A DNA stretch of 62,000 nt, the filler included, from Jimgerdemannia flammicorona (Eukaryota), in the NCBI GenBank assembly GCA_003990765.1. It is 3 parts of 3 records of this genome, joined end to end, with 100 filler letters (N's around TTAATTAATTAA, not from the genome) between each part and the next. Parts side by side here need not be neighbours in the genome. Positions count along the whole stretch, not along the records: positions 1 to 20,602 come from RBNJ01001636.1; 2 more parts are not named here. One strand, given 5' to 3'. Under the pieces are notes generated by a model. It was not told the origin of the DNA and ran no database searches. It was given only the letters and a program-made list of their open reading frames with translations. The number at the start of each line of letters is the position of its first letter. Positions within the stretch are counted from its first letter, which is position 1. Below are positions 1,436 through 54,390 of this stretch, piece after piece. A program made the translations under genes and the position numbers.

Positions 1436-4178
1436 TTTTTTTTTTTTTTTTTTTTTATAGTCGCTTGGACTCCTTTATTCCACTAGTCTAATGAAAAACA
1501 CTATCCATGTATCGCTATGATTACCTCAGAACAACAATGAGCCCAACCCACCACTATTTATAATAATACAAAGAAGGGCCATTTAGCCCACACCTTCTTT
1601 CTACCTCACCCTCTTCTCACCAAGTACAAGGTGCTCCTGACTTCTCTGAACAATATCTAACACCTTCTTCATGGCCCCCAACTGGTGCCTCTTCCCCTGA
1701 TACCACCACCCTTGCACCACTTCCAAGAGTAACCCCTTCCACTGCTCCACCAATTCTCCAATTTCCATCCAGGGATCCCTCTCCAACACCCATCGCCAGT
1801 ACACCGCCATCAGTACCCAGATTCCGATAATCCGACCTAGGCCTCCCCAGATGTCCCCAATTTCTCCCACCAGTCGATGCTTGATCACCCGACAAGTGGG
1901 GCCCCCTGCCTGCTCACTCTCTTCCCCCCAATAACCTTCCAATATCTGCCAAAATCCTTCAACCCCTGGACAAGCTGCCAGAACATGCTCTAGAGTCTGC
2001 ACTACTCCCCCATCCAGCTCACAACACCACTCACATTCCCTTACACCTTCTTCCACCATCCACCCCATCCTGTACCCCAGTATGATGTTCTTCTGCAGAA
2101 ATCACCACCATACCACCCAGAACTTTGGCAGGGCAATCTTGAGTAGCGAGGTCCCCCAACTCCAAACCTGACCCCACTCCCATTCTTCTCCAAACCCAGC
2201 CTTCTGCCAACCAACCGGCCACCTCTCAAGTGGACCCATCCAGATCCATTCCATCGCTCCAGACAAAGCATATTCCACCAATGGGTGGCCACCAATATGA
2301 ATCACACTAAATTGCCACCATCGCCATTCTGGGTCCTCCTCTTCTTCGCCAGGTTCTGGGCCCATGAGTCCTATTACTAGCCAAGCTTCTACAATACCCC
2401 ACCAGAATCCCCTATAATACAACCTGCCAACTCTTCCAACCTGGAGCAAACCCTGCATGTCCTTCCGAGCCTTGCTCCAGGGACAGAACTGAACTTCCCA
2501 GTTGTCCATAGCTAGTTTGCTCTAACCCTCCACTCCTAATTCTGCCATTTGACAACCCCACCAGCCTCAAAGTACCTTCAGCTACCTTCTGAAGTCCACC
2601 AGCCCCAGACCTCCATCTGCCTTCGGTGTCACCATAATCTCCCAACTAATCTGTGATCTCCTTCCCTGCCACAGCCATCCTTCAACCACCTTCTTCAGTT
2701 TCTGTACCACCCATCCTGGAAAGTCCAGGTGGTATCCCAAGTACCACAGCTTTAGTAACCAATATACATTCAAAACTACAATTCTCCCAACCAAGGAGAA
2801 GCCCCTCCCAGACCAGCCCACCAAAATATTCTCCCACTTCTATATCAATCCACACCACCACTCTTTCGGCAGCACCATCCCATAAACTAAGAACCAGATA
2901 CCCAGATGAGGACTGTCTGCAGGCACTCCCAGTTTGCCCTTCACCACCTCTTCCTCTTTCCATCAGTCAGAATCCAGATCCAGTCCTTGGCAAACTCCTC
3001 CCATTTCCTCTTCTGCAGTTTCTTCACAGCCTCTCTCTCCTCTAGGGCAACTAGCAATTCCTCCTCCTTCTGTTCAGAACCCTTCCTTCTCTACACTTTG
3101 CACTCCTGCCCTCTGATATGAATTACTTCTGGCCAGTCCCTCCCCTGCCCCATGGCTCCTTGCCTTCCAGCCTCACCATCACCTCACAGTTGCCATTCCT
3201 CAACTTGGTCCCCTCCCAGAACATAAACCTGAAGTCAACCATCTCACCAAATGCCCCCAGTGCCTCTGCCACCATTCCTTTGGTCTCCTGTCTCCCCAAT
3301 GTCAGCAGCCCTTCAATCACCAGTTGCACTACCCGTGGGTCCCACCTCAGGCACCTCGCCATACTGACCTTGATGCTCTTGATGACCAGCCATTTCTCCA
3401 AGGCCTTCACCATCTCCTCCTCCTCAACGAATCCTATCTCAACTGCCTCAGCTAATGGGATGAACTTGAGCGACTCTGCCCCTGCAATCTCCTCTCCCAC
3501 TAGCTGCAAGACCTCCCTAGCAGACATCCCCAGCCCCAAAAAATTTGCTGATATGGCCCACATCAACACCAACTTGTGGAAGAAGGGACGCACCACTAGT
3601 TCACCAGAACCAGCTGCCATTGTCATCTTCTTCTTGTTCTCTGACACTCCAGCAGTCACCCCAGCCACTGGCCCAGCCCCAGGAATACTAGTTTCAGCCA
3701 CACCACTTCTGGACCCCTGGCCCCTAGCAGGCACCTGACCAGTCACCTGACCTGTCACCTGGCCAGTCACCTGACTCCTACTCCTGTCAATACTATGCCC
3801 CCCCTGCCCTACCCCCATGGGCCTAGTAGCCATCCTCCTGCCCCCCATCACCATGTGCCAACTCTCAATGCCAGCCTGCCTCCCCTGACCACCTACTCCT
3901 CTTGCCCCTACCCCCACTCCAACTGTCACCGCGAAACTCCTGGGAGACCCAGACCAGGCCTCCTTCTCTCCAAATACTCAGAGCTTGATCAACCTTGGGT
4001 TGCCATCTGACAAAAACTCCACTGAAACAGATGAGACTTGTTGTGTACTATAGCTAGACTTCTGCTGCACCTCGTACACCAGTATAGATGATGGGAAAAC
4101 TTGAAACATGTTGCTTGTCACAAAAAGATGTCTGTGTGGCTTAGCTCGCTCCAAATGGTTTGAGCCAAAGAAGATCCC
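1436..4178 (-). mobile_element. Internally deleted L1/Tx1-like LINE (ORF1 plus C-terminal part of ORF2, poly(A) tail) inserted in the Gypsy A integrase
   Basis: Poly-T at 1434-1456 is the poly(A) tail on the minus strand. 16-bp TSD TGGACCTCTACCAGTT at 1420-1435 and 4179-4194. ORF1 3123-3929 shares RCLRWDPRVVQL with the LINE at 14890. ORF2 remnant LGIWF...SLVGRIVVLN...GGLGLVDF and zinc-finger region CEWC...EHVLAAC. Confidence 0.92.
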
Positions 4179-5026
4179 TGGACCTCTACCAGTTACACCA
4201 AGAAGAAACCAATATATCCTTATATTTGTAGAATATCTGACCAAGTGGCCCGAGGCTTTCCCAATTGAAATTGCAGATGCCTTAACTATTATAGGCCTCC
4301 TCCATGGACTCACACTCAGATATGGACCCCCAGAAGAACTTATCTCTGACTGAGGCACAGAATTCATCAATAACATAATCACAAGTTATGCTCAAATTCA
4401 CAAGATCCACCTCAAAAGGACCACATCATACCACCCACAGACCAATGGCATGACAGAAAGAATAAACCAGACCATCAAGAAAGGACTTGCCCAAGTGAAC
4501 CCTACTAATTGGGACCTCTGCTTACCTGAGATTCTATGGGAAATTTGGAATATCCCTGCTATGTCCACCAAACAAAAGCTATTCGAAATGATGTTTGCCA
4601 AGAGAACCAGAACTGCCGACCATGAGAATCTCAGAGACCTCCTCAAGAAGGCAGAACAGTTACGAAATCAAGCCTAAGGACAGATTATCAAAACCCAGGA
4701 AAGACAAAAGAAGTACTATAACCAAAAACAGAAGGATCAGGAGATCAAGATTAGAGATCAAGTCCTAGTTTGGAGAAGCATGATTGAGACAAACTTTGCC
4801 ACCAAACTAGAACCGAAATAGGAAGGATCTTATCTTGTACACAACATCAGAGAAACCAGCATCTATTTAAGAAGCATGGATGGATGAACCCTGAGAACAC
4901 CAGTACACATCAATCACCTCAAGATATACTTCTCACACCATAAACCAGAGAATTGACAACTGCCTCCAAACTCTTGTCCTCAGTTCCCTCCAAGCCCTAT
5001 CAGTTCCCCTACCTCAGTTCCAGGAA

Positions 5027-5452
5027 CCGAATGGAACCTATCTTCAGAGAATCTGAGTTCATCAAGAGAATCTCACTTTGGCCGAGAGGCTACTCCAGGT
5101 CCACCAGCTGCAGGCATATTATGCAATTGGAGAACAATTGCAGAATCTTTCTCTCCCAGACCTAGCCTATGTCCGAAACACCACTGGCCTGAACAGAAGG
5201 AACACTACTGCTGCAGACAGACTATATACAATATATAAACAAAATCCTTCTGCCTTAATCCAGGCCCAGTTTTCCCTGAATGATCTCTAAAGGATGATAC
5301 TGCCCACCTACCTCAGCATTATTCACTAAGTGGAGATCCTATTTCCTGAGGAAGAAGAAGAACCCCTGGAATAGAGTGACTGCAGCTCAGATGATAATGA
5401 TGGAACAGGTATAGATGCAGAAGCTGCTTATGCCTATTGGGATGATGACTGA
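5027..5452 (+). pseudogene. Extra ORF between integrase and PPT of Gypsy A (uncharacterised accessory protein, decayed)
   Basis: One frame reads NGTYLQRI*VHQENLTLAERLLQVHQLQAYYAIGEQLQ...TTAADRLYTIYKQNPSAL...acidic tail. A similar ORF sits at the same position in Gypsy C and D. Confidence 0.7.
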
Positions 5453-5491
5453 AGAATAGTCTGGGACAGACTACCCTTCAGTGGGGGCTGT

Positions 5492-6863
5492 TGTAACAGA
5501 CCAAAACATACCATCTGAATTATAACTTAGCCAGATGACACGAACAATTAGCATACTTACTCAGCATGATGTGACGTCCAGTGTATCATAGTTACTCATG
5601 CCTGCCACACTTATAATTAGCCAAAACACCAGACCAAGATTGTTTACCTGTGTCCTGAGGACACACTCATGTCCTGCGGACACACTCATGTCCTGCAGAC
5701 ACACTCATATCCTGTAGACAGACCTGTACTCAGAGGACACACCCAAACATTACTGAAGATAGCAAATCTATAGTTAGCCACATAGTAACCAGATAGCAAC
5801 CAACTTGTATAAATTACCCCAGAGACAAAAGTGAATAAACCTCAGTCCAAATTGAAGTGCAAACCAAAGAAGCCTCTAAAGATTGAGCAATTGGTCCCCT
5901 TATTCCCACTCTGGTCCACTTTCTGATACAAAGATTGATTGGTTCACTTGCCAGATAAGCCTGAAGATTTGCCGCCTAAGTTCAAGAAGAACTTTGCCAC
6001 CTTTTGAGTAACCTGCTGCTTAAGGAATAAGCCACCATTTTCAAGTTATCCACATTCCCAGAGAAAGCCACCTTGCCTAAGCCAGTTTCCGACACAACTT
6101 CACAGTGATCCATTCATGCAAACGAAGCCAGTCTTTGATGCAACTTTGCCAAGAGACCCTTTCCAAGCTGCCATCCGGTTTCCCTGTTAGAGCCCACCGA
6201 TCCACTATTTTTGAGTTATCCACTATATTCCCAGTTGAAGCCAAATCCGCGCCATCCGAGTTAATTCCCAGTTAAGCCACCACTTTCAAGAAGCCTGCCA
6301 AATCTGCATTGTCTGCCACTTTCGAGTTATCCGCATTCCCAGAAGAGCCACCCAAGTTGTTTGTCATTCCCAGTGAGCCCGGTACTAAAGAAACTGCACC
6401 ATATATTCCCAGTGAGCCAAATCGAGTTATCCACCAGATTATCAGAATGTCCTGCATAAGGAACCTGCCACGCTATACAGAGATCATCATGCTACACAAG
6501 ATCATCATACAGAAATCACATAAGGAGAACTGCTAAATTACCAGACTATCATATACAGAGATCATCACACTAAGACTATCACTCAGAAATCACATACTTT
6601 TGGAAATTGTCTCACTAAACAAAATTGTGGCATTCCCAGTTGACCCAAGAAAGAAAGATACAAATCACCACTACACCCAGAGAACTGTCCCAATAAGGAA
6701 ACCACTTGCAGATATCCAGCTTTGACTATTATACCACTAAACACTAAGGATCTCAGGAATCTTAGAATATTTTGTTGCTTTTTGACAAAGTAACTGGGGG
6801 CTCAAGCCAAACTACATCAACCCCCAACCTTGTAATTTGCCTCCATTGAGCTGGCATGTTACA
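5492..6863 (+). repeat. 3' LTR of Gypsy A (~1.37 kb)
   Basis: Starts TGTAACA right after the PPT and ends TGTTACA (7-bp terminal inverted repeat). TATAAAT ~5808 and AATAAA ~5834. Unrelated pol sequence begins directly after it. Confidence 0.85.
5651..5720 (+). repeat. 19-bp tandem repeat (TGTCCTGxxGACACACTCA, ~4 copies) in the LTR U3 region
   Basis: Directly visible tandem units. Confidence 0.85.
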
Positions 6864-8501
6864 ATAGTGATGATGCCGATAAGTATATACAGTATCATCA
6901 ATACTAACTAAAGGATAATACTATCTACTATAAAGACAGACTGTATGGCCCAAACAACTGAGACCTCTGAAGGACAATCCTATTCGAATGTCATGATGCC
7001 TCTACAGCTGGACATTTAGGATTTGATAAATACTATGAAGTTATCTCCTGAAACTTCTATTGGACCTGTATGGCAGATCAGCTCAAAACCTACATCACTT
7101 TCTGTGATGCCTGCCAATGAAACAAGTCCTCAATACTAGCAAAACCTGGCTTACTTTACCCTATCCCAGTACTATCTGTAAATTGGAAACAAATCTCTAT
7201 GGACTTCATTATACAACTACCCTGAACCAAGAACGGGAAAGATGCAATTATTGTCTTTGTATATTACCTCAGCAAACAAGCCTACTTTGTGTCTACTACC
7301 ACTACTGCAACAGCACCAGACATAGCCACACTCTTATTTGACAATATCTTCCACTATCATAGTCTTCCTAAGATCATTGTTAGTGACCGAGATCCAAAAT
7401 TCACCAGCCATTTTTGGAAAGCCCTCCATACACACCTTGGAACAAAACTTGCACTATCAACAGCCTTTTATCCAGAAACTGATGGCCAAACTAAAAGAAT
7501 GAACCGAACTCTGGAACAAATGCTAAGGAACTATGTTTCCTACAGACAAGATGACTGGCATGAACACCTTACTACAGTCAAGTTTGCCTATAACAATAGC
7601 AAGCAAACCTCTCTCGAAATGACCCCATTCTTCACCAAAACTGGACAAAACCAAACACCCCTTTGACACTTATCTGAACAACTGAAGAACCCTCCACAGT
7701 CGAAGCTGTTGAAGAATTCTTACTCTGAATGCACAATCTAAGCCAGATTGCTATTGAGAATTTATTATGAGCTCAAGAACAACAGTCACAGTATGTTAAC
7801 CAACACTGCTGAGAAGAAACCTTTGATATTGGAGAAAAAGTTCTACTGGACATCAGAGGATACCGAGTTGACAACCTCAAGCACAGACTATCTACAAAGC
7901 TGAACAGCAAGTTCATTGGACCATTTGAAGTCATTGCATAAGTCTCTAACCTCCTACAAATTGGCACTACCAGACACCATTAAGATTCACCCAGTCTTTA
8001 ATGTTCAATGTCTCAAGTGATATAATGAGAATGATGACAAGCTATTTCGAAACTGGACCACCAAACCACCTACACCTGTTATTATTAATGACTAAGAAGA
8101 GTATGAAGTTGAACAAATCCTCAACAAACGTGGCAACAAGAGCTACCCTGAGTACCTTGTCAAATAGAAAGGTTACCCGATCCATGATGCAACCTGGGAA
8201 CCCAAGACCAATCTTCAGAATACTACCAACCTAGTTCAGGAATATGATTCCTTAAACAACTAGAACGAAATACTTCACACCTATCTATACATACTACATA
8301 TATATTATCCTCCCGAACATTATAATTATTGTAAACTAAACCAAGAACTCAGCAAAACAAGACAAGAATACTGACCCTCTGGAAAAATAGCAAAACTGAA
8401 AGCAAGCCTATTCTCCCTATACTACTGGTGGGAAACAAGGTATAGACATAACAAAATTAGAAGGCCCTGATGAGGACATCGAAAGCTAAGAAGGGGAGAG
8501 T

Positions 8502-10562
8502 TGTAAGCGCACAACCTCCAAGCCACTGAAATTACATGTCACCCTCTGAACAAGTCACTGAAATCACACATGACCTCTGAACAAATCTGGAAATCACCTG
8601 CTTGATCACAAAGCTGAGTCAAACTGAAGTCACAGTGCACAAAGCTGAGTCAATATGAAGTCACAGAACACAAGATTTACACAAATGGAATCTTACCAAT
8701 TAGGACCAAATGCATATATATTGAGCACTGAGATATGTCAAATCAGAGAACCAAAACAAACCACAACCACAACTTCCAAACATACAAACATAACCACCAA
8801 GATCTATACCTGTATCCGCACTGACATTTGGAATGCCATTTTCAACTGAGCCACACCCCCTCTGCCCCTTATGAATATCCATAGCCTAGCACCCCTCTAC
8901 TTCGTGGAAGCCTGATGGAATGCTCTGAACATGCTTAGTAAGGCCCACTGAATTGGACAAATCTCAAGCTACTACCAGATCAGCTGCCTTCTGGAAGACA
9001 TGATTGAATACCACCACAATACAGACATTACCCAGATGTCTCAACACCAGAAGCTCATCGCCTGCAAACATCAAGAACTCTTCTACGAGTATAGCACCAT
9101 TATTCTCCACCTCTGAGTTACCACAGCCAAAATGGTTGCTACTCTGTCCTATGGCCAAATCAATGACATGATATAAGAACTCAACCACAATTACCTCAAG
9201 TACATCAAAACCACAGACAGAACCTTCCCATACCCCAATGATCATATCCTGCAAATGCCCCAAGTTGGATATGCCATGAAGGACATCTACAATATAATCC
9301 ACTTCAATGAAGATGAAGCAGAAGACAATGATCCCTCCGATGCCAACATGACCTCTAGCCAAGGATCTCTGCCAACCCTGATTACACCGCCAATCTTGCC
9401 AATGAACTTATAATAATTTATAACAGCATACAAGACTTATTGGGACAATGACCACTGGTATGAATACCAATCTGCATTCACTCCCGATTACTTCAACTAC
9501 AACAAAGAGACCGGAGAACATGACCTGTACCTCCAGACAACTCTCGAGATTGAACCAACCACTCCACCACCTGAGTATGAGTGATATGAACCACAGCCAC
9601 CAGCTTACTACAACCCCACAACTTATAGTGCTATAATCTACAGAAAATATGCAGACAGCGAATTCGATGCAAGTGAAGACAATACACCCCTCCTTTATCT
9701 ACCAATACCTTATCCAGTATATGAGACAGACAATACTATTCTGTGGGATGGTGATGAAGTTCCAATGTATTATTACCTCAGCAAACAAGGAGAAGTAATC
9801 CACGAACCACTCTTCCTAGACGACTACTTCATCAGAGATGATGCAATTGATGGTGATGTCATCGAAGACTACTCAGACAGTGCCTAAACCTATAAATAGT
9901 CTAGCAGTCATAGTATAGTTAGATTAGTCTTATATGATGTGACTGTGGACTGACTCAGCTGTCAGACAATCTTTTGACATATCAGATCACACTTGTACTA
10001 CATAACTGCATTCTGACTCAGCAAGGCACTTAGTGCTACCTCCATATTAGCATAGTCTACATAGCCCCTCACTGGTATAAATACACCCTCCCCCAGACCT
10101 CAGAATCTCAGAATCGAACATACAAGTACATTTCTGAACACTTCTCCACAATATCTCATCATACAACTACTCCTAGTATAGCAATATCATGAATAGCAAA
10201 TAAACCTATTTAATAACCCACAAATCACTTTTAAGTAAATCTGCTCCCTGTTAGGTCCTACTCCTAACCCCATTATGAAATTTCCTACTTGGGTATTGTC
10301 TGCAGTGATATGCCAATTCAACTAAGCTAGTCTTAGTTTTTTGAACTTCCTGAAATATGGAAAATCCTGAACATCCAGAACTAGTCCAAAAAAGGACTTT
10401 GGTTGAGACCTTAATCCGATCTTGAAATCAATAAGCATAGAGGACATACTCCATATGAAATTGACCTTGACCAATAGAAAACAGTCTTCCAGAATATCCA
10501 GAACCTCCAGAAAACCTTTCCAGAACTATGTAACAGTTACCCTAAAAAGCAACCCTCTTACA
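8502..10562 (+). repeat. 3' LTR of chromovirus B (~2.06 kb)
   Basis: TGTAAG...CTTACA inverted termini, preceded by the PPT. TATAAATA ~10076 and AATAAA ~10199. LINE sequence resumes at 10563. Only one LTR copy is in the window. Confidence 0.75.
8655..9887 (+). pseudogene. ~400-codon decayed ORF inside the chromovirus LTR (U3), unknown protein with acidic C-terminus and PPxY motifs
   Basis: A single reading frame from 8655/8685 to TAA 9885-9887, interrupted only by TGA/TAA stops consistent with C-to-T changes in CGA/CAA. Contains SYYQISCLLE...KLIACKHQELF, PPPEY and PPAYY. Confidence 0.7.
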
Positions 10563-13500
10563 GTTACCCTCTTATAGACTAATCATCAATACCCAGAACA
10601 AGAGAGAGATATCAATTCTCTTTAAATCTTCTCTAGTCAAACTTACCTAATCTGATTATAGATCTTCTTCAAATCTAAGAAGACTACTTTTCTATTCAGC
10701 TTACTAGTTCTCATCCCTTCAATCTTACCATATATCCAGACTATATCACCTCTAATCAGTCTGCTTCCAATCAAATTTCATTTCTTATCTCCTAATATCT
10801 ATTGGGTCACCTTCTGTGACCTCACAATAATCACTTTAGTGATCAACTTTTTTTCTATATCTAGAAGTATAATTGATCTCCAATTCTTCCAATTCTCTCT
10901 CCTGCTCTTATTCTTATATAGTAGTGCTACCATACTAATGTCCTGCCCTCTGACTTACTTCCTAAATATGAGGACATAGTTACAAAGTACTGTCATTTTC
11001 TCCAACACCCCCAGGACCCACACTATCTTCTTCCAAAAGTCTCAGGTTAGGCCATTCTTACCAGGAGCTATGCCCAACTTTATAGCTACTAAGATTCTTA
11101 AGATTTCCTTCTTCTGATCTGGTAGAATTAGATCCTTGAGATCATCAACATATAGAGAGTACTATTCCTCCAGAGAGCACACAATAATCTTCTCATCCAT
11201 ACTCTCTTTCTTCTTACTCCACAGTCCTCCTCACTGATTCTTCAAAGAATCAAACTACTATACTCATTTACTATGATACTCTTCTCATCTAATACTTTAT
11301 CTTACTACTGTCTCACCCTCCTTATCTGAAGAAGTCTAGTCAGATACTTAGTGGGCCCCTCATCTTTCTCAAGTCTCTGCCACTATACCTAAGTGGCTAT
11401 ACCCTATACTAAAGCCTCCTCCTTCTCTCTTAACACCCTCTTCAACTTCTTTATCTTTATCTAAACTCATTCTAGTCTACAATCTTTGACAGTCTCTCAG
11501 TCTATCAGACTAGCTCATATTAGCTATAACCTTTTCAACTATTGGGAAATTCACCCCACCCTCTGTCTCTACTGAACACCCTTGAATCTACTCTTCAATA
11601 CATCCTAACAACCTTCTTCAACTTTACCCAGCAGACTCTCACAGCAGATCTCTTATAGTTCTAGCATATAATCTTTGATTTAATATTCTCCACCCAAGCC
11701 TCTCACAACCTGGTCTCTTCCAGCAAGGAGGAATTGAGACATTAATATTCAGATCTATTTGCATCCTCTCTAAACTAACTATATCTCATAAGTCCCCAAT
11801 AATCTAACCATGGGCACTACTCAATCTCCAGGTCTACTCAAACATCTATCCCACAGTAGTCAGTGGTCAGTATCCAGTCAATTCTCATCCCAAGTCTATT
11901 CACTCAGTGGGTGTAAACCCTCCTGTTTCCCCATAACAATTTGCTAGGATCTACTAAAGAACTTAGATGTTTTACTTTCTCTTAGATATTCAGACCACTT
12001 CTATGGTCTCCAATACTCCTTCCTCTATCAGTCCTGTCTAATAACACATTTTACACTATATTGAAATCTCCACTAAGTACATCTATGTGTATCTCAGTAA
12101 GTATACCCTACTTATGAAGACTCTACTTAGTTACCCCTCACTGCTGGACAATATCAGGAGCCACTCACTACCAGACCTCCACCACTCTCTCCAAACCAAG
12201 CAATCACTCCAACCCTCAACCTCACAAAGATCTCCTCTACCTTTCTATACTAGAATCTCCACCTTACCCTTTCAAACTACTATACTACTCTATTTTCTTA
12301 CTCACTCCTGTCTATTAAGTCTCTCTTATAGTATATATTCTATAATAAAAAAAGATCTGAATCCAATTCTCTGAGCCAAGCAAAAATGTTTTAATATCTT
12401 ATAGAGCCCCTCAGATCATTTATATTCAGTGAGAAAATATTAGTTATACTGTTTATAATTAAATAATACTATATAGTATTCTCAATATTCTTATAGTTCT
12501 ATACTTACCTCATTCTGAGCCAAGTCCAACTATGTTCTATAATAGCCTCCTCCTCCTTGACCTTCCTAGTCTCCAATTTAGCCAGTATTTCTGCTATTGT
12601 CTCATTATCCTTAGTCTCTATCTTCTCTTTATATTCAGTGCATGTCTTCTGCCAAAGTTACAATTCATATCATCGATTCCACCAGAAGGCAGCATATTTC
12701 TCAGTAGCTACCACTAATTCAGCTTCTCTCTCAGTATCAACCTCATAACTCTCTTTCTCCAGAAATACCACTAATATCTCAGTCTTTGGCTTCTCTACTA
12801 CTCTATTATCTTATGATACTCTTACTCAATACTCCTTATTAACAATCCTCAAGTCCACTTCTCTTGCTCTTTCACAGCAAAATTATCTATTGTCTTAATC
12901 ATTCACCTTAAGATATTAATGTTCTTTCCACCTGGGGTCACAGATCTCCCCTCTCCTAGTATGTATTATGACATCAATACTAGTAATTACAGACTCATCT
13001 CATTCCTCCTTCTGGAACTTCTGCTGCTTATCCTCCTTGATCCCAACTACTTATCCACTCTTCACTACATCAGATACCACAAACTAGATCGTGTGTATGC
13101 CCCATATCTCTATATTCTCTCCAATATTTCTGACCTGAGCACTAGCCCTCATCTTGTACTTCACTTTCTCTTCTCAGATCAAAGTACTCTATTATTATAT
13201 AGCTACTGGCTTACAACCTCTCTGCTCACTACCATATTCTCTATCATCTACTCTTCTCTATTTCTAGCCCAAGTGCTCACCTTTACTTCTTTTGAGCCCT
13301 CTATAGCCCCAGTTACAGACCTCTCCTTTATGTCTACCAATAGATCTCTCTGCCTTTTTCTCTTCCTACATCATCTCATCTATATGAATCTACTTTTCTT
13401 TATTATCTCCATATATATCAGTGTCTCTTTCTTAAGTTTACCATACTGCTGCCCTATACTTTACTACTTCACTAAGCTCCTCCAGAGTCTCCAGCTGATC

Positions 13501-14859: not shown

Positions 14860-17800
14860 ACAATTCACATTATACAAAAACTTCAATCAATGGCTCTCAA
14901 CACAACTAGGAGAAAAGATACTATCAATATGTCTTCAAGCAAGAGTTCTGATGGGTGTACTGGGTCGGGGGGAGCTGGAGCTTTCGGCTGGCAGAATGTG
15001 GGGAGGGGTTACAGCCTGGGGATGGGGGCCTTTGGAGGGTCAAACAGGGGTGAGGGCTCTAGAGGAGGACTGATGACAGGTGGTGTTGGCGGAAAGGCTG
15101 GCCCCTCAAGCTTTGCTGACAAGGTGAAGGGCCAGCTGAAGACAGGGCTGGTGCTGCTGTGGGGAAGGGCAAGGCAAGCCTTGGGAGGGGGGGAGGTCCC
15201 CAGGCTGGAGGTGTGAGCATAGGGGCTGGAGGTACAGTGGCTGGGGGTGTGACTGTTGATGGGAGTGTGATGGGGAATCAGAAAAAAAAAAGAGATGTGA
15301 TGGCTGATGGCCAGGTGGGGCAGAGGCTCCTGATGTGGAAGGGGGATCTGGCTGATGGTGTAACGGGGCTGGTAGTGACACCATTACTCAAGAAGTCGAT
15401 CTCAGAGTTCATGGTGACCTTGTGCTTCTAGGGCTTGGCGGTGATGGCGAGGATGGTTCTGGGGCTTGTTTCGAAGCAGGTGGCTGGGGCGGCCTTGGTG
15501 AAGTTCTTGAAGGGGCTAGAGGGGGTCGAGGTGGGCTTTGAGGAGGCAGGCCCTCTGGATGAGGTACTGAAGACTGGAGTTGTGGTTGGAGAGGTAGTGG
15601 TCTCCAAGGTGAGGTGCTTGCGATGGGACCCCAGAGTGGTGCAACTTCTGGTGAAGGGGGTGCTCATGGTGACTAAGGAGGAGACAAGGAAGAGGGTAGA
15701 GGAGGTGATGGTTGAGTATGGTAATGTGGTGGACATCAGCTTTCAGGTATGGGAGGGGACGATGATCAGGACAGGTGATGTTGATGTCCAAATTAGGATG
15801 GCAGGCAAGGAAGCCACAGGGAAGATGAGTGACTGGCCTTCAGTGTTGATGTGGGGGGCTTTTATTTGTAAGGTGTTGAGGGTGAAGGGGAGTGAGGAGG
15901 AGGAGGATGATCTGTTGGAAGCATTGGAGGAGATGAGTGGTATGGTGGAATAGTGGGCAAAGACCTGGAAGCTCTATGAGGAGTTGATACACCTGGAGAT
16001 TGTAGAGGAGAAGTGTGTCTGCACTGACAAAAGGCAGTGGGAGCAGGCCCAGGGGTGCTTAAGGCAGGGAGCTCTTGGCGAGTATGACAGGAGGGGAGAA
16101 GAGGAAAGTAGATGGGGCAGAGGGGGCTGGAGGCATCGAGGCCAGTATATGGGCTGGCGAAGGTGGAAAGGAGGCAGTGGGGAAGGAAGAATGGGCTGTG
16201 AAGATACTGGGCAGGGATCCCTATGCCGACAGTACTTTCGAGGTCTGGGAGGAGGAGTCAGATGGCCCCCCCCCACTACTTGTCAGGAGGGGCCCGGTGG
16301 GGTAAAGAGGGGCAGCAGATGATATGCAGATGCAGGGGGCCCAGCGAGTTACCTTTGGGGTCCCAGATGTGGTGAAAGGGGTCCAGGTGGTGGCAGTTGG
16401 TGAAGATGAGCTGGTGGATGTCCCAGAGGAGGAGTGGAATGAGGATGTAAGTGTCGGTGCTGATACTACAATGCTGGATGCAGGGCGGCTGGGGACCCCT
16501 GGAGGGAAGGAGATTGGGAACCTGCTGTGGATGAGTAAGGTGATGGATAATCTTGCAGCTGAGGTGTTGGGGGAAGTGGATCTGAGGGTCATGCCAGAGG
16601 AGCACTGGGCAAGGATTCTGCGAGGTGATGGGGTGGTGGAGGCGCTGAAGATGGAGATTCTTATGATACTACTGGAGGAAGAGGGTTATGAGGTGGATGA
16701 GGTGAGGAAGGCAGAGCTGGTGGTTGTGGTGGGTAAGCGGGTGGCCTACTGTTGGGCAGAACGCCATGGTTTGCAGTTCTGGCAGGAGACCTGTGGGGAG
16801 TATTGGGAGGACTTTGAGGAGAAAGAGGATGGGGTGATGGTTGAACTTCTGGAGGGGTTGGAGGCACAGGGAGCTGAGAAGAAGGAACTGGCTGTGGAAC
16901 ATATCTTGGATTTGGCACAGGAGGACTTGAGTGTGGATTTGTAGAGGAGAGGTTTAATCTTTAACAATATTCCTCATGAACAGTACAACTAACATTTTCT
17001 CTCTCAATGTGAATGGCCTTCAAGGATCTGGGCAGTGTAAGAATATTTTTACATGGCTAAAGGGATTGGAGGCTGATCTCTTTTTACTGCAGGATGTATG
17101 GTGTGAGGATGTGGATGATCGGGTGGAATGGACTAGGGAATGGGGTGGGGCTACCACTCGGTTTGGAAAGGTGGCAATTCTGATAAAGAAGGGTAGAGGA
17201 GATTTGGAGGGAATCAAGAGCTGGGGAAATCGCTTGGTCTGGGGTGAATGGCACTAGCCAGGGTGGGAATTAGTGAGGGTGGGCTCTTGTTACTGCCCAG
17301 TGGCTAGGGGAGAGAGGATTGTGTGGATCAAGGAGCTACTGGAGGAGGGCATCCTTTTGGAGGAAGGGGTCGATGTTCTTGGTGGTGATTTTAACATGGT
17401 TTGAGATTTACGGCTGGATAGGACTGATGGAGGGAGGAATGTAGATGGGAGGAGTGGCAGTATAGATGCATGGGAGGAGGTGGAACATCTTAGCTCCTTA
17501 GTGGACATGGGCCGAACTTGGTTGGGCATCTCCAGGATCTACATGCACTGGGTGAATGGCTTAGGGACAAGGATTGACTGGATTCTGACAGCTGAGTGTT
17601 GGGGTGCTGATGTCTGGAAGACTTTGAAGGTAGTGTGGTGCCCGTGGTCTGATCACTGGGGCCTGTTCAGGCAGGGGCAGTTTGGGGTGAGTGGAGATGG
17701 ACCTGGACATTGGCATCTTAACTCCTCCCTGCTGGCTGAGAAGGGGCTGTGGGACCCATGGGTGGAGGATGTCCAGGCAAAGATTCCACTTTGGAGGTAG

Positions 17801-20602
17801 GAGGGTTTGTTGGTGGATGTCTGTTGGATGAGATTGAAGAAGGCTGTGAGGGTCTATTGGGTGGAGCTGGTAGGGAGGCAGGGAGATGGAGGAGGAGGCG
17901 AATACAGTGTGCTTCAAATAGGCTAAGGAGATTGCAGTTGGAGTAGGCAGATTTGCTTAAGGCTGACATGGTGAAGGATTGGAGGTTAGAGAGGGCGAAA
18001 TTGAAAGTTGTAGAACTGCAACAGGTGTTGAGAGAGGAGGAGGAGACTCATATGCGAGGAATGGTAGCCAGACTAAGATGGCAGGGGCTTGAGGAGGGGG
18101 AGCGGCCTACTACTAGGTACTTGTCTAGGCTCCTCCAAGCCAGGTGGGTGAGACATCAGTGGAACGGGATCTTGGATACCAAGGGAGAGTTGGTGCATGG
18201 TATGCAGCAAATCCTGAGAGTATTGAAGGAGAATTGGTTGGGTCTGTGGAGTGAGGAAGAAGGAGGTGCTGATGCAGAGGCAATTGGTGACACACTGGAG
18301 GAGTGGGAGCCACCACAGGTAGAGGGGCCGGGTGACTTGATCTTACCAGTCCAGGAGGAGGAGATCCAAGGAGTCCTGGCAACAACTAAACTTGGGATGG
18401 CGCCAGGGGAGGATGGGTTACCATGGGACTTTTGGAAGAAGATGGTGAAAATCCCTGGGATGCTGAGAGAGATGATTGCCCTTTGTGACTATGTTCTCCT
18501 AAATGGCATGTGGGTTGGAGAGCAGGACTTAGGGCTGGTGGCCCTATTGTACAAAGACAAGGGCCGGCGTGGGGATTGAAAGAACTGGAGGCCAATCATG
18601 CTTCTGGATATGGATTGGAAGTTGGTGACTAAGGTGATTGTTACAAGGCTACAGAAGGTTGCTCAACAGGTGCTGGGTGAGGGGCAGTGGGGCTTTATAG
18701 GAGGTAGACTTATCAGGGATGGGACTGCCTGGGTGCATGACATCATTGAAGGAGCCCGGGCCTGTGGATTGGATGGAAGACTGGTTTTTTTGGACCAGGA
18801 GAAGGCCTATGACTGTGTTCGGCAGATTTGGCTGGGCAAGGTAATGGACAGAATTGGCATTCCACCACCATTTCAGGCCTCTATATTGAGTTTGTTGGAA
18901 GGGAGTAGGGTGGCACTGATGTGTAATGGTCACAGGGGTTTGGCATTCCTCTTGTGGAGATGAGTCCCTCAAGGGGACCCATTGTCCCCTATCCTTTATG
19001 GGCTCTCCTTGGAACCTTTGATGGACAGGATCCATAAGAGGGTGACTGGGCTCTCTGTGTATGACATGGAGTGGAAGGTGGGGGCCTTTGCAGATGATAT
19101 GGTTGTTGGACTTGGATCAGATGCAGATGTTGAGGCTCTTCAGGAAACAGTGGAGTGGTATGAGGCACACTCGGGAGCAAGGCTCAACTGGCATAAGTGT
19201 GAGATGATGGTGCTGGGGAATGGGCTAGTAGGAGGAGATGATATTGGAACAATTGTCCCCACAGGAGAGGTGGTGAGGTATCTAGGTATCTTCCTCTCTG
19301 TATATGGATCAGTCCTACCATGGATATGGTGGGAGAGGAGAGTGGACATTTGGGGGGAGACTCTAAAAAGTTGGCGGGATCGTCACATCTCCCTGGTGGG
19401 GTGGGTGGTGATTCTGAATATATACTGGTTCCCCAAGCTGTGGTATGTTGCGTATCACTTAGACTTTCCTGCTTGGGTAGTGAAGAGGCTGATGAAACTG
19501 GCTAGGGATTGGATTTGGGCAGGTAGAAGGGCCCAGATCAGTTGGGATACTCTTGTCGAGCCAGTGCTTAGGGGAGGCCTGGGCCTTGTTGATTTCCCTA
19601 AATGCCTACACTGCCTGCAAGCTTGATAGTTAAGAAGGGCTGTTGAGCTACAGGGAGGAGGTTGGGTACCATTGATGAAGAAGGTGTAGGAGATGAGAGT
19701 CTCCCCCCGGGGGTCCTCTGGGGATCTACTCTCTTTGGTGGGTCTGAATTACCCCTTCTTGATGAAATACCACTTTATCCAACACCATCTCCACCCACCC
19801 ACCACTCTATTCACAGATCCTTCCACCAGATGGCGGCATTGCCCACCTTGTGGTCCCCATCCCACCCACTACCCCATCAGCAGATCTGCCACCAACTCCT
19901 CCCATCTCAACAACTTCTCCTATAATACTATTCGCCGCCCCTTCTCAAAAACAAAGAGCCAATGTCTGGCCAACCCCACCCACACTGCCACAACCCACCC
20001 TACAGTAAGCCACCTATTGCCAACACCTCTCACAAGCCTAGATTCCAGATCTTCCCAGCGACCTCGCTCTCCATCTGGTCTCCTATCAACCCCTAGCTGG
20101 TCCCCTACAGCTACCCAAAAATCCCCCAGCACCTCACACTCCCCCAGCCAATGTTCCAGCATTTGTACAAATCCCCCAACATGCCCAATGTTGTAACACT
20201 CCTCACACTCCAGCTGACCACCATCCACCAGATGGCCAGCACAGAAGTTCAATATAACATTCCTCTACAACATTCACCACCACACTACCCAGAACTTGGG
20301 AGGAAGCCACCACCACACCTCCGTACTCCAAGACCAGATCCCTGCCCAGTCCCACTCCTCACCAATCCTCACTGCCTGCCAACTACTCAGCCAAAGATCC
20401 TGGCTGATTTGCTGCTGACACTCCACTCCATCTCCAATGTCAAACTCAGTGAGTGGAACTTCCCCTAGAAGCAGACAGTCTCATCTCCACATAGCTGGAC
20501 CCCATACCACCTCCCCCTCATTGCCATGCCAGCGCAAGCCAATCCTGTATGCCCCATCAACCACTCCCCACCAGAAGCCCTTATACTGTAGCCATCTGGG
20601 GG
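14860..20602 (+). mobile_element. Near full-length L1/Tx1-like LINE, degenerate: ORF1 ~14890-16944, ORF2 APE endonuclease-RT 16976-19750, final ~850 bp inverted
   Basis: Endonuclease SLNVNGL...LLQD...GGDFN...RIDWI...SDH. RT APGEDG, NWRPIMLL, DQEKAYD, PQGDPLSP, FADD, YLG. The C-terminal zinc-finger region lies on the minus strand at 19751-20602. Confidence 0.93.
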
Positions 20603-20702
20603 NNNNNNNNNNNNNNNNNNNNNNNNNNNNNNNNNNNNNNNNNNNNTTAATTAATTAANNNNNNNNNNNNNNNNNNNNNNNNNNNNNNNNNNNNNNNNNN
20701 NN
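20603..20702. other. Artificial contig spacer (N44-TTAATTAATTAA-N44)
   Basis: Six-frame stop linker flanked by Ns, identical to the second spacer. Confidence 0.98.
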
Positions 20703-21260
20703 CCAACACCATAACACTCCTCGCAGTCGAATTGTCCACCCTCCACCAAATGCCCTGAGCGGAAATTCAGCATAACATTCCTCCACAACATTCTCCACCA
20801 TACCACCCAGTACTTGAGAGGGAGCCATCGCCGTACCTCAGCACTCCAAGACCAGATGCCTGCCCAGTCCCACTCCTCGCCTATCCCAACAGCCTGCCAG
20901 CCACCCGGCCAAAGATCCTGGCCAAGCCCCTGCTGACACTCCACTCCCTCCCCAATATCGAATGCAGCCAAGGGAGTACTCCCCAGGAGCAGTCTATCCC
21001 AATGCCACATTCCAGGCCCCCACTCCACCTCCCCCTCATTACCCTACCAGCGCAGGCCAATACGGTGCGCCCCTTCAGCCACTCCCCACCAAAACCCCTT
21101 GAACCGCAGCCTCCGAACTCCATTCAGCCCCACCAAAGAGAGCAGATCCCCGGAGGATCCTTGAGGGGATGTACGCATCTCCCATATCTTCTGCAGCAGA
21201 GGCACCCAACCGCCACCTCGCAAATCCACAGCTCTCTTCAACCACCAGGCTCTCAAGCAG
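20703..21260 (-). mobile_element. 5'-truncated LINE fragment (ORF2 C-terminal region), relatively young, abutting the gag of Gypsy C
   Basis: RAWWLKRAV...GDLLSLVGLN...KGFWWG...WRMLWRN...CEEC is homologous to the other LINEs. Many CpGs are retained. Confidence 0.85.
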
Positions 21261-21261: not shown

Positions 21262-23731
21262 TCAGTCTTTAAGGATCAGCAAGAGCAGCATTCACAGTTG
21301 CAACCCATATAGAAAATGATGATGATACTATGCTAGCAGTACAGAAGACCTGCCTCTGAGCCATATACTACATAGATAAGATCAAGCAGATACTGAAGAA
21401 TCAGCTCAATACAATATACTAAGGAATAAGTGAGAATTCAAACATATTCTACACCAGAATCTGATATCAGATAATCTTTACAGATTATATTACTATTATC
21501 AGAGATCAAGTAGTCAAAGTAACCTTTATAAAAGGAATCTATTCAGAGATAGCCTTGGCCATTCACTCATTACCAATAGTTCTGAATCTGATACAAAAGA
21601 TCATCTATGCTCAGTAATACTAGATAGCCAGACATCTATAAGACTATATAATAGAGAGAGTCACTGGAGTCAGAATTGAAGTACTCAAGACAATTAGTAT
21701 GATTCCTATCACAGTAATCAATCAAAACACACCTCAACCAAGAGCTATTAAATAACAGAGAAATAGTGACCCTATAGAGGAACTTGCCAAGAAGTTCACC
21801 AAAATGATAGCCTATCTAGGAGATATGGTAAAGGAAATTAAAGAAAGAGACTGCTGCTCAGTTCAGAAATTTGCTACTATCTCAGACAAGAAGAGAGATA
21901 TCTGCTATACTTGTAAAGAAGAAGGCCACTACTTATGTATATAAATATATAAGTGAAACCAAACATAAGGTATAGCTAAGTAATACTACTTGAAATAAGA
22001 AATAGGTCAACATCATCACCTTTAAGAAGATTGGAGAATTAGATGAAGAGGAATAAGAGGTCTATTCCATACAGACCACCAAAAAGAATATTCATAAACA
22101 ACTCTATAAGAGATCACCAGGGAGACTCAAGAAGAACTCTGTGGAAAAGCAGATAGAGACTGCTACAGAAAGTCAAGGTAAAGAAATAGATCAAGATATG
22201 GAGCTAGAATAGACTGTTTAAGATATTATCCAAGGAACCACTCTAGTTAGTAAAGGAGAAAAGAAGAAGAAACTTTACAAAACCAAGACCTTCAAGTATG
22301 ATATCTTCAAGAATCTCAGTCAATAAAAGATCAATACAACCTTTGGTCAACTGGTAGAAATACTCATATTCAGATAGCAAATAAGATATGGACTTACTGA
22401 AATAACCAAAGAGTAAAGATGAAAGATAACTAAGGCCAACAATGTTCAAGAGGACTCAAGAGAAGAAAGCAAAGATAACTATAAGATCTCTACCTAGAGG
22501 ATTACATAACCAAGGTACAGATATTACAATGAAATAATGTGGAAAAGATTCACAAGCCCCTAGAGATTATTAAGATAAGAGATAAAGTCCTAGTATATTG
22601 AAATATAGTAGAAGCTTCATAGTTATGAAAACTAGAGCTCAAGTAAAAAGAATCTTATCTTATACAAGATATAAAAAGAACCACCTTTTGGCTATAAAAA
22701 CTCTCAGACACAATTATCCCCACTACTATTTATCAAAACTGACTCAAGAAGTATTATAGCCAGTTAATGAAGTATTGCTACAGCTCTCAAGATCATTAGT
22801 ACTATAATGAGTTATAGAAAGATAATAATATACTACTGAGCTGCCTATGATGAAGAAATCCTTTGATAGTATCCAAAGTATAGTATAGATATATCTGTCA
22901 TGAATTTCACACTTCAAGACCTATTAGAATCAGATAGAGTTTCAAGAATACTTCAAGTTAGGATAGCTACTGAACTTATAACCAGAGATAGTAAAAGAAG
23001 ATTGGATCAGAGAGTGCCAGCTCTCCCATATTCAGATCACTATTACTAAATAAGTGTATAAGTTATTTAAGAAGAATGAGCCAGCCTTAGCTCACCTTAG
23101 AGAAGTGGTTCTAGGAGACTTTGCATAAGTTAGAAGGTATTATTGGGAGATTATAATGATATAGATTATATAGTACAAAGAGATATAGATTGTGGAAGCT
23201 TGGGAGTTTGAGTGAATAGGATATTTTAAAGATAAATCACCTATTTAGAAGAAAGTTATAATGGTTAATCTAAATTAGAAACATGAATTAGAAGAATAAA
23301 CATTTAATTATAATACCTAAATCTAATTCCCAAATATAGTATAGTCTTACAAATAGCAGTCATATTTTCACAAATGTAGAAATTTTATAAATATAGAAAT
23401 TTTACAGATATAGAATCTTTATGATTATAGAGATTTCACAGATATAGAGAATCTATACTTGTAGAAGATAATTTATAGAAAACATAGTCATAACTTAGCC
23501 ACCTTATAGCTAGCAAACTTGTATAAATATCCCAATATTTAGAGTAAATAAACCTTAGATTGAAATAGTTCAAAACAAAGAGAAAGCAAAGAAACTAGTA
23601 AGCCTACAGATAGATATACTTCAAACTCACCTACTCTTACATTCCAAGAACTCTGTAGAGTTAAAGAAGATCAAGTTTTTAAGATACAGAAATCTAATAT
23701 ACTTTCAAGATTAAGTATCTGCTATGTTATA
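21262..23731 (+). mobile_element. Gypsy C: internally deleted, strongly mutated relative of Gypsy D (gag, integrase tail, extra ORF, PPT, LTR 23257-23731)
   Basis: Collinear with Gypsy D gag, including the knuckle CYTCKEEGH at ~21903. Jumps at ~22495 from the pre-protease region to the integrase tail. PPT-like TAGAAGAAAGT, then an LTR resembling the D LTRs. Confidence 0.82.
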
Positions 23732-32594: not shown

Positions 32595-32598
32595 CTGT

Positions 32599-33055
32599 TA
32601 TAATGTAGCAGATGCTAAGATGGGCAAGTATATCAGATTTCTTTATCTTAAATTCTTGTCTTCTTTAACTCTCAGAGTCAGTAGTTTCTTGAGACCAAAT
32701 GTGTTTAAAGAGGTAATCCTGAAAATCCCTTTTATCAGTATACTTGTTCTTTTTCTAACACTTTCAATCTGAGGTTTATTCACTTAAAGATACTGAGTTA
32801 TTTATACAAGTTTGCTAGCTATAAGATGGCTACTGAGTTATATGGCTAAGTTATGAGTCATTTAGCACTTTGCAAAATATTTCACCAGTTGCAAAATGCT
32901 ATACTATATTGAGAAGCTCGATCTTGCGCTTTGCAAAATATTTAGCAAATGGCAAAATTGGGGACTGCTGACTATGTGGCTATACTACTTTGGGACTGGG
33001 TATGATCAAGTGTCTGTTCCAATTTCCTTCTTCCAAATTTGGCTATACTGTTACA
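32599..33055 (-). repeat. 3' LTR of Gypsy D
   Basis: About 92% identical by eye to 38816-39273. Preceded on the minus strand by a purine tract (CAGGAGAAAG). Confidence 0.95.
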
Positions 33056-33069
33056 ACTTTCTCCTGAAT

Positions 33070-33540
33070 AGATGATCTCATCCTTGAAGCATCTATTCAA
33101 ACTCCCAGGCTTCAATGGTCTGTATGGTCTTATACTGTGTAATTTGTTGTATTACTGTTTCCTAATAGTGTCACCTGACTTGGTCAAAGTCTGAGGGAGT
33201 CACTCCATATAGGTGGACTAGTGCTGATTCATTATCTCAGAATAGTTTGTAGATTCTCTTAGCAATGGTGATCTGGAAATAGAAGAGCTGGCATTCTATA
33301 ATCCAATTTTCTTTAGTCATTTCTGGGTCTTGGTTGAGTACTTGGCCAAGTTTGAAGTACTCTTGAAATTCATTTCGATGCTGATAAGCCTTGAAGTGTG
33401 AGATTCAAGAGAGATGAGTCTGTACAATGCTTTGGATACTATCATAAGACTCCTCTATTGTTGAAGGCTCAGTGGTATATCATTGTCTCTCGATGGCTCT
33501 TTGGGCAGCACTAGTGATCTTAAGTGTCATTGCAGTACTT
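33070..33540 (-). pseudogene. Extra ORF between integrase and PPT of Gypsy D
   Basis: ISHFKAYQHRNEFQEYFKLGQVLNQDPEMTKENWIIECQLFYFQITIAKRIYKLF*DNESALVHLYGVTPSDF. A homologue lies at ~22780-23220. Confidence 0.75.
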
Positions 33541-36254: not shown

Positions 36255-36670
36255 TATTGAGTCAAACCCATTTCTTCCTCACTCCGTTTGTCTGGCTTTT
36301 GTATTTTCTTTGATCCTCAGGTTAAGGACAGATAGGATGAGCATTTGTGCTAGCTGATCCTTCTTCCTTACTTCAAATGGAATGATTGAGTTGTGGTTTC
36401 TAGCAAAAAGGAGAATTTCTCTGATGTAATCTGAATCAATAACTCCTCCTTCTATGGATATTTCACTTTTGGCCAAGCTACTTTTTGTCTTGAGAATTCC
36501 AATGTGGTTTGGTGGGATGGTTACTTCGATTTCTGTTCCCAGTATAGTAGTGGTTTGTGGTTTGAGGATTATATATATTGTAGTAGACAGGTCTATTCTT
36601 ATTGTATTTTCCAATTTATACTATGGTATGACTGCATCAGGGTGGATTCTTTGTATCTTGACTGTGATGT
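36255..36670 (-). pseudogene. dUTPase domain within Gypsy D pol, between protease and RT
   Basis: All five trimeric dUTPase motifs in decayed form: IRIDL (AGxDL), KSSLA (RSS/RSG), GGVIDSDY, QLAQM (RIAQ), *GRNGFDS (RGxxGFGS). Confidence 0.9.
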
Positions 36671-38815: not shown

Positions 38816-39273
38816 TATAATGTAGTGGATGCTAAGATGGACAAGTACATCAGATTTCTTTATCTTGAATTCTTGTCTTCTTTGACTCCCAGAGTCAGTA
38901 GTTTCTTGAGGCCAAATGTGTTTAAAGAGGTAATCCTGAAGATCCATTTTATCAGTATACTTGTTCTTTTTCTAACACTTTTGATCTGAGATTTATTCAC
39001 TTAAAGATACTGAGTTATTTATATAAGTTTGCTAGCTATGAGATGGCTACTGAGTTATGTGGCTAAGTTATGAGTTATTTAGCACTTTGTGAAATATTTC
39101 GCTAGCTGCAAAATGCTATACTATATTAAGAAGCTCAATCTCATGCTTAGCAAATTATTTAGCAAATGGCAAAATCAGGGACTGCTGACTATGTGGCTAT
39201 ACTACTTTGGGACTGGGTATGATCAAGTATCTGTTCCCTATTTTCTTCTTCCAAATTTGGCTATACTGTTACA
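38816..39273 (-). repeat. 5' LTR of Gypsy D
   Basis: Begins TGTAACA on the minus strand, followed by ACT-TGGTGCCC (putative PBS). Confidence 0.95.
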
Positions 39274-41301: not shown

Positions 41302-41401
41302 NNNNNNNNNNNNNNNNNNNNNNNNNNNNNNNNNNNNNNNNNNNNTTAATTAATTAANNNNNNNNNNNNNNNNNNNNNNNNNNNNNNNNNNNNNNNNNNN
41401 N
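41302..41401. other. Artificial contig spacer (N44-TTAATTAATTAA-N44)
   Basis: Same linker as 20603-20702. Confidence 0.98.
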
Positions 41402-43069: not shown

Positions 43070-43344
43070 GCGATTCCTGTCGTCCAGCTTGCCATGATCG
43101 TTCTGGGTCTTCTCATGTAAAAGGGATATGGGTTCTTCTCCTGGAAAGCCCACTCGGTGAGCTCGGCGACGAACTTCTCCTGACTTGGCATATCTTCATG
43201 GAGTGGGAGTTACTGATGTGACCAATTCGCGTCGATAAGATGGACAGGGGAACGTGTGAATGCATGACAATCATGCATTCTTTGTGTGATTGTGCAGCTT
43301 TGAAAGAGCTGGCATGTAAATTTTTTTTAGAATCTCTCAAATAA

Positions 43345-43345
<1 letters not shown>

Positions 43346-43390
<45 letters not shown>
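43346..43390 (+). repeat. Poly(A) homopolymer (~45 nt)
   Basis: Directly visible. Confidence 0.9.
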
Positions 43391-43392
<2 letters not shown>

Positions 43393-43613
43393 CGAGTGGT
43401 TACCACAGATATTCGATTTGGGGGGGCAAGTGATGAAATGACGCCATATGATGGGAACAGAGTCACACGTGGTTCGTAAAAGACGCGTCTGGTTAATCCT
43501 ACGACCCTTGCCTTGGCGGCTGACCTTCATGTCGACATGTCGCCGCAACAAGCAGCAACGAATAGACACACCATCGTAACCATTCGCGTTTCCCTCCTTT
43601 GCAAGACAGCGGC

Positions 43614-51569: not shown

Positions 51570-54390
<2,821 letters not shown>

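Follow-up and report, generated by a model that had tools for sequence, protein, structure and literature searches.

Genes that lie in the unique 3' region (U3) of a long terminal repeat (LTR) have been described in retroviruses. In mouse mammary tumour virus (MMTV) the sag gene, the 'LTR ORF' (open reading frame), is located in U3, and lentiviral nef and the foamy-virus bel/tas genes overlap or reach into it. The DNA considered here, a window of 62,000 nucleotides from Jimgerdemannia flammicorona (GCA_003990765.1), carries a comparable frame in a Ty3/Gypsy retrotransposon, referred to as element B. Like sag, nef and bel, the ORF of element B would be a frame of a few hundred codons in U3, downstream of pol and upstream of the promoter signals of the LTR; like the sag-type genes, it would occupy the 3' end of genomic RNA, and each duplication of the LTR would duplicate it. 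The reading favoured on balance is that a genuine chromovirus accessory gene, situated wholly in the U3 of a 2.06-kb LTR, is present in the window as a dead copy that CpG methylation has decayed.

The reading frame, its intact relatives and its decay

A sequence-only reading of the window had proposed a gene of about 400 codons at 8655-9887, in one frame of about 1.2 kb that is free of frameshifts and is broken only by stops explicable as decayed arginine and glutamine codons. Translation bears out the single frame: 8655-9887 (+) comprises 410 codons and a terminal TAA, with no frameshift and eight internal stops, namely TGA at 8847, 8913, 8949, 9114 and 9582 and TAA at 9174, 9411 and 9414. 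Taken alone, this openness is modestly unusual and only suggestive. Over 8790-9887 the ORF frame holds 9 stops, the terminal one included, while the other five frames hold 15, 27, 6, 25 and 25; among 2000 mononucleotide shuffles of the same segment (mean 18.3 stops, standard deviation 4.1), 8 contained no more than 8 stops.

The stronger evidence comes from relatives. A HMMER search of 1.84 billion representative proteins gave three matches, two of them credible, the metagenomic proteins P0001 and P0002, and both of these are open. P0002 (128 residues) aligns without gaps to codons 46-173 at 78% identity. P0001 (247 residues) covers codons 160-409, with 58% identity, 78% positives and two 2-residue gaps, and has the same end point as the window frame. 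P0002 has R at all four TGA stops within its span, whilst in P0001 the three TAA stops, as well as TGA 9582, are Q. The restorations IGR and IAR that had been predicted from the window are both present in P0002, where the window reads ISC and IAC. The third match, P0003, a six-fold repeat protein (E 8.6e-4), was rejected as uninformative: only 36 residues are matched, and the protein has scattered unrelated Pfam matches. Word-index protein searches for near and for shorter matches found nothing beyond P0001 and P0002.

Because P0002 opens with Met at the codon that reads ATA in the window copy, the supported gene is 8790-9887 (+). Its start is probably at 8790, giving 365 codons and the TAA, with all eight internal stops inside. 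The proposal of about 400 codons thus holds for 8790-9887, but its first 45 codons (8655-8789) are without support from a relative. A frame without stops over 247 codons at 42% protein divergence, in which every gap spans whole codons, is inferred to have been kept by selection. Judged from these alignments, the ORF of element B is a conserved, selected protein-coding gene that is open in its relatives.

One feature of the relatives sits less easily with a single continuous gene. P0002 ends at the codon before TAA 9174, and P0001 starts at the Met at 9132, 14 codons upstream. Every one of the 10 columns that are invariant in the three-way alignment falls in the 14-residue overlap of the two proteins (9132-9176). 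The boundary may reflect two in-frame cistrons, a read-through stop or simply the ends of contigs.

Comparison with the relatives shows 8790-9887 in the window to be a dead copy, broken by C>T changes. Seven of the eight stops are one C>T step away from an R or Q codon of the relatives. The window copy differs from P0002 at 28 of 128 residues; 21 of these differences are explained by one C>T or G>A change in the window copy, and 15 of the 21 lie in CpG context. The observed/expected ratio in the ORF is 0.30 for CpG and 1.84 for TpG. Across the window the CpG ratio is 0.03-0.38 in the repeat-rich part (1-42000) and 1.0-1.1 in the genic part (42000-62000), where tubulin, arrestin-like, GNAT and histone deacetylase genes lie, a pattern that fits methylation-driven decay confined to transposons. 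The gene content and its compactness point to a eukaryotic host, probably fungal.

Other copies of the element point the same way. Contigs from four runs (X1-X4, three soil metagenomes and one organism run), compared at a threshold of 80% likeness, include many B copies with 80-99% likeness to the window. At position 9411 almost all of the other copies have C, and some read CAA CAG TTC at 9411-9419. Because these copies read C at 9411, the stops of the window ORF are taken to be the private decay of a methylated repeat. A different account of the stops, in which the G-poverty of the strand marks repeat-induced point mutation with W-to-stop changes, was dropped, the relatives carrying R and Q at the stops.

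The predicted protein, its kin and its possible role

The product would consist of a helical domain of ~115 residues joined to an acidic, aromatic and proline-rich tail of ~250 residues with conserved short blocks. The N-terminal domain (8790-9131, +; ~114 residues), delimited by the P0002 alignment, AlphaFold2 and composition, is predicted to be all-helical, has a net charge of about 0 and carries the motifs Y-Y-x-I-G-R-L-L and I-A-R-K-x-x-E-L-F. A single-sequence AlphaFold2 model of this domain, made from P0002, has five helices at low confidence, with a predicted local distance difference test (pLDDT) score of 51. The C-terminal part (9132-9884, +; ~250 residues), delimited by the P0001 alignment and composition, runs from the conserved Met and is predicted to be unstructured (pLDDT 36 in the single-sequence model of P0001).

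The composition of this tail confirms the acidic character that had been claimed for it: the net charge is -35/-36, with 15-16% F/W/Y and 9-10% Pro. Several identical blocks are common to the window tail and P0001, which suggests short linear motifs. The PPxY-type motifs of the sequence-only reading are present in the window copy as PPPEY and PPAY, but are conserved at neither of the two aligned positions of P0001, which read PLSEY and PLAYY.

The family has no recognised relatives to lend it a function, and this weighs against its reading as a genuine accessory gene. No Pfam family was found for the ORF, P0001 or P0002, nor for the extra ORF of the Gypsy element D described below. No PDB sequence matched below E 0.1, and a combined profile gave no match; a search of the ESM Atlas gave no usable lead, and Foldseek on the pLDDT-51 model found generic helical bundles (best E 0.9). 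To these can be added that the N-terminal domain is not basic, which disfavours nucleic-acid binding. A DUF3410 match in Pfam (E 0.074) was ignored as a family assignment, and PDB matches to SKA1 (E 0.11), asparaginase (E 0.15) and a phage integrase N-domain (E 1.3) are not significant. The B proteins thus form an orphan family, and the intact copies in soil metagenomes make its function testable.

The nearest candidates for kinship are in the same window. Two other Gypsy lineages, A and C/D, in which no chromodomain was seen in the frames read, also carry an extra ORF directly 3' of integrase. In Gypsy A this is a decayed ORF (4937-5464, +) whose frame is not that of integrase and which starts at the integrase stop (4954-4956). 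It has the Y-Y-x-I-G motif and, like the B ORF, an acidic tail, and ends ~25 nt before the start of the A LTR, TGTAACAG, at 5492. This LTR start is preceded by a G-rich tract, and the spacing from ORF to LTR is short of the ~45-nt layout in D. Element D is a complete non-chromo Gypsy (32597-39273, -) whose LTRs of 460 bp (33055-32597 and 39273-38814) are 92% identical. A sequence resembling a primer-binding site (PBS), TGGTGCCCATTAGC, follows its 5' LTR, and no clear target-site duplication was seen. Its internal 3' extra ORF (33096-33554, -; 153 residues in relatives) stops ~40 nt short of the 3' LTR, which starts at 33055, and the polypurine tract (PPT) lies in the spacer between them. Seven intact relatives of the D ORF are 63-78% identical to the window D copy, and sequence comparison revealed a second, 57% identical copy of the C/D-family ORF at 22811-23212 (+).

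The products of A, B and C/D would be alike in a helical domain of ~130 residues, in which two motifs are colinear: Y-[YF]-x-[IL]-G, followed after ~27-29 residues by A-[RKD]-[KR]-x-x-x-[LI]-[FY]. Unlike the B ORF, those of A and C/D are internal, ending a few tens of nucleotides before the LTR. The N-terminal domain of B probably, though far from certainly, shares ancestry with these internal 3' ORFs. Profile comparison of B with D by hhalign gave P values of 0.042 and 0.029 (55 columns, 27% identity), and 8 of 379 column shuffles matched the real score. When residues were shuffled, the real score was reached in 4 of 5000 cases for the D profile against P0002, in 7 of 5000 for the B profile against P0004 and in 70 of 5000 for the B profile against P0008. 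Against the A ORF the corresponding counts were 4 of 5000 for the D profile and 17 of 5000 for the B profile. In MAFFT alignments the A, B and D families are colinear over ~130 columns, and the alignments are mutually consistent.

There is a good deal to set on the other side. The reversed control of hhalign scored 13.7 where the real comparison scored 18.2, identity among A, B and D is 12-17% and the P values are marginal. The kinship motif was initially chosen on visual inspection, and shuffling residues makes for a lenient null, since it destroys helical periodicity. The proposal that distinct Gypsy lineages share one accessory module receives weak support from marginal, colinear profile matches, but tblastn, a family hidden Markov model and motif regular expressions run with the B ORF over the window returned self matches only.

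The product may be a trans-acting regulator or adaptor. The most likely single mechanism, tentatively held, is transcriptional activation of its own LTR. This is the first choice because an acidic aromatic tail and a small helical domain occur together with repeats in U3; acidic, aromatic-rich tails are typical of activation domains. The repeats form two tandem arrays found by Tandem Repeats Finder, one of 32 nt x 2.1 (8519-8584, +) and one of 31 nt x 2.2 (8607-8673, +), and repeat number varies among copies, as seen in joints at 8542>8574 (skips 31) and 8586>8658 (skips 71). An activator of this kind would bind the U3 repeats through its helical domain and recruit host machinery through the acidic-aromatic tail, in the manner of foamy-virus Tas or of Tax of human T-lymphotropic virus (HTLV).

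Next in order, though rather unlikely, is that the product is not a transcription factor but a Vpr/Vif-like adaptor or antagonist of host factors, or a PPxY-dependent helper of assembly and budding. A small helical domain joined to a tail of conserved short blocks would suit such a role, as would the fast divergence of the family, at the low identities given above, and the PPPEY and PPAY of the window copy. However, PPxY is missing at both aligned positions of P0001, and because the motif is not conserved, a part in assembly or budding through PPxY is unlikely.

Position of the gene in the LTR of element B

The 3' part of the pol gene of element B extends over 6603-8263 (+) and ends at the TAG at 8261-8263. 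Within it, Pfam recognises Integrase_H2C2 at ~6959-7132 (E 5.6e-15), rve at ~7190-7465 (E 5.9e-06), SH3_Tf2-1, split over two frames, at ~7834-8023 (E 3.5e-05) and, C-terminal to the integrase, a chromodomain at ~8102-8248 (Chromo, E 1.1e-12), all on the plus strand. By its chromodomain, element B is classed as a chromovirus, that is, a chromodomain-bearing Ty3/Gypsy element. It is cut or interrupted 5' near 6603-6660; repeat cover begins in bin 6603-6803 in the four runs.

Downstream of pol lies a polypurine tract, GAAGGGGAGAG (8490-8500, +), followed by T and then by the LTR start TGTAAG. The purine run here, 13 nt at 8488-8500, is the longest in 8200-10700 and the sole long one beside a TG, and the layout GAAGGGGAGAG-T-TGTAAG (8490-8507) matches that of element D, AGGAGAAAG-T-TGTAAC. 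The proposed 3' LTR of B runs for 2061 bp, 8502-10562 (+), from TGTAAG to CTTACA; these terminal hexamers, at 8502-8507 and 10557-10562, are exact inverted complements, and each occurs only 2 or 3 times in the first 16 kb.

The downstream limit can also be seen in contigs of other copies, which diverge from the window at 10560-10562, one into ACT+TGGTAGCAGCAG and two into a different flank. The TGGTAGCAGCAG after the LTR is PBS-like, and the 'ACT + TGG' layout is that of the junction between 5' LTR and PBS in D, ACT+TGGTGCCC. The single X3 contig reads TAACTTGGTAGCAGCAG after 10560, which parallels ...TATAAC-T-TGGTGCCC in D (one record). High-copy cover stops in bin 10422-10622. Two further details of this end may be recorded: two instances of ACAGTTACCCT lie at the LTR end and flank (10533-10543 and 10560-10570), and the B flank GTTACC resembles the flank of the D 3' LTR, through either target preference or coincidence.

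The signals within this LTR are placed as the sequence-only reading had described them, the ORF being downstream of the PPT and LTR start and upstream of the TATA and poly(A) signals. TATAAAT motifs at 9891-9897 and 10076-10082 (+) form the putative main promoter, and the sole AATAAA in the LTR (10199-10204, +) is the putative poly(A) signal. The ORF end at 9887 sits 4 nt before the first TATAAAT, and another TATA-like site lies upstream at 8715; the ORF would thus lie in U3 provided that the main start follows a downstream TATA box. The upstream site, TATATAT (8715-8721, +), and a CCAAT (8696-8700, +), 70-95 nt upstream of the ORF start, are possible elements of a promoter belonging to the ORF itself.

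Very likely, then, the LTR runs from 8502 to 10562 with the ORF inside it. The claim of an ORF inside a chromovirus LTR receives support that is indirect, from the PPT layout, the inverted termini, the PBS-like continuation and contig depth. Depth is a poor measure; the summed contig depth of 8613-9818 relative to pol (6603-8210) is 2.2, 2.2, 2.9 and 2.2x in X1-X4. Several observations tell against the long LTR. In the window, blastn found no second copy of 8481-10300, and neither a 5' LTR nor a solo LTR was seen. Metagenome contig scans with P0001 and with alignment A1 gave 25 and 12 pattern matches, none of them confirmed as DNA of the relatives. Depth also rises again, 1.7-4 fold, from ~9819 to 10622, a rise that would also be expected if the LTR were short and the ORF internal.

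On that alternative, the ORF would be internal and 3', like those of Gypsy A and D, only the last ~700 bp (~9800/9890-10562) would be true LTR and the tract at 8490 would not be the primer site. The second depth step is found at bin 9819-10019 in all four runs, a 9-nt purine run occurs at 9787-9795, the related ORFs of A and D end shortly before their LTRs, and the D LTR is just 460 bp. However, the purine run at 9787 continues TAATCC and not TG, and near 9800-10050 there is no TG with an inverted match to the LTR end, whereas the TGTAAG at 8502 has such a match, after a 13-nt purine run and in a layout like that of D. A ~5-fold rise in depth has, moreover, already occurred between bins 8211-8411 and 8412-8612. 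The second step falls at the TATA box, as it would with a variable U3 and conserved remainder of the crapaud kind (PMC10787394, in its available text), and copies of the P0001 type, at 58% protein identity, would drop below the 80% likeness threshold. The step probably arises from LTR subfamilies that have the sequence beyond the TATA box in common and differ in U3. A short LTR is accordingly judged improbable.

More improbable again is that 8790-9887 is foreign to the LTR, a captured fragment of a host gene or a small nested element without function for the retrotransposon. The protein has no recognisable retroelement domain, and the 3' 750 bp of the LTR are 1.7-4x deeper than the ORF part, such that many LTRs may lack the ORF. 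Yet the credible relatives, just two among all the proteins searched, do not amount to a host-gene family, and contigs of other copies span both borders, from the repeats into the ORF (8639-8884) and from the ORF into the TATA region (9762-9931). The openness of the ORF across 42% protein divergence and the weak resemblance of its N-terminal domain to the 3' ORFs of two other Gypsy lineages also speak against a foreign segment.

That the real gene is on the opposite strand, with the sense frame as its shadow, or that the frame is a chance relic, is barely credible: antisense frame -0 does have only 6 stops in 8790-9887, with minus-strand open stretches of 147 codons (8964-9407) and 96 codons (9408-9698), but the sense frame is uninterrupted, through 247 and 128 codons, in two independent relatives, whose substitutions are conservative and which have R or Q codons at 8 of 8 sense stops.

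If the ORF does lie inside the LTR, it would be duplicated at both ends of each insertion and retained in solo LTRs. Its transcript could start at a CCAAT/TATA-like U3 promoter of its own and use the poly(A) signal of the LTR; alternatively, the ORF could be the 3'-terminal cistron in a subgenomic RNA. Lineage B may have reached this arrangement when its PPT/LTR boundary became established upstream of an ancestral 3' gene.

An extended form of this proposal, in which each LTR is a self-contained cassette of enhancer-like repeats, CCAAT/TATA-like promoter, 365-codon ORF and poly(A) signal, expressing a trans factor and originating by a shift of the primer site, is doubtful as a whole. Both LTRs and every solo LTR would express the factor, whose dose would scale with LTR number and outlive pol. 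The plus-strand primer site would have shifted upstream of an internal 3' ORF shared with the non-chromo Gypsy elements, and the gene, swallowed into U3, would later have acquired its long acidic effector tail.

Other features of the window and comparison with known systems

A segment at 1560-4300 that interrupts the Gypsy A integrase is GC-rich (0.52) and has a strong C-over-G skew, with proline-rich translations. It starts at a T run (translated as poly-F) and looks like a nested insertion of another repeat. At ~17000-19500 (+), a G-rich segment contains a stretch resembling a reverse transcriptase of the non-LTR type (FADD motif). Four runs of 44 N (20603-20646, 20659-20702, 41302-41345 and 41358-41401) are masked or gap stretches, and the first pair sits between 300-nt direct repeats, 518 nt apart (20194-21011).

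Extra ORFs without an assigned function have also been described in other LTR retrotransposons. In the available text of the sources, fungal chromoviruses are drawn with an internal additional ORF, 'add. ORF' (PMC2864245), extra ORFs are reported in bdelloid retrotransposons (PMC5408684) and in Cer1 CERV (PMC10309623), and the brtn element of Botrytis has an additional ORF that is drawn or described as internal. As far as these texts go, such ORFs resemble that of element B in being additional to gag-pol and sometimes shared by unrelated lineages, and differ from it in being internal, where the B ORF is inside the LTR. No gene inside the LTR of an LTR retrotransposon was found described in the literature as available, though figures or supplements may hold one; in the same texts, 'LTR ORF' is used almost only of MMTV, and its other uses mean ORFs of whole elements.

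A parallel to the variability of the B LTR is provided by the crapaud elements of Podospora, whose LTR subfamilies, in the text available, vary mainly in U3 upstream of the TATA box, with the remainder conserved (PMC10787394). The depth step of B, at its TATA box, agrees with this pattern. The crapaud U3 is, in that account, shorter than 200 bp and non-coding, whereas the U3 of B carries an ORF.

A gene in U3 would be present in two copies per insertion and would survive in solo LTRs, which alters both the trans action and the evolution of an accessory factor. Should the link to A and C/D be true, one accessory module would occur in two architectures in one genome, a natural experiment on the repositioning of a gene. 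Pfam, PDB and Foldseek, the last on a poor model, gave no sequence or fold homology of the B protein to the U3-encoded retroviral genes. The likeness to sag, nef and bel is thus one of position and arrangement, and the carriers are different: those genes belong to vertebrate retroviruses, whereas the B ORF belongs to a chromodomain Ty3/Gypsy retrotransposon.

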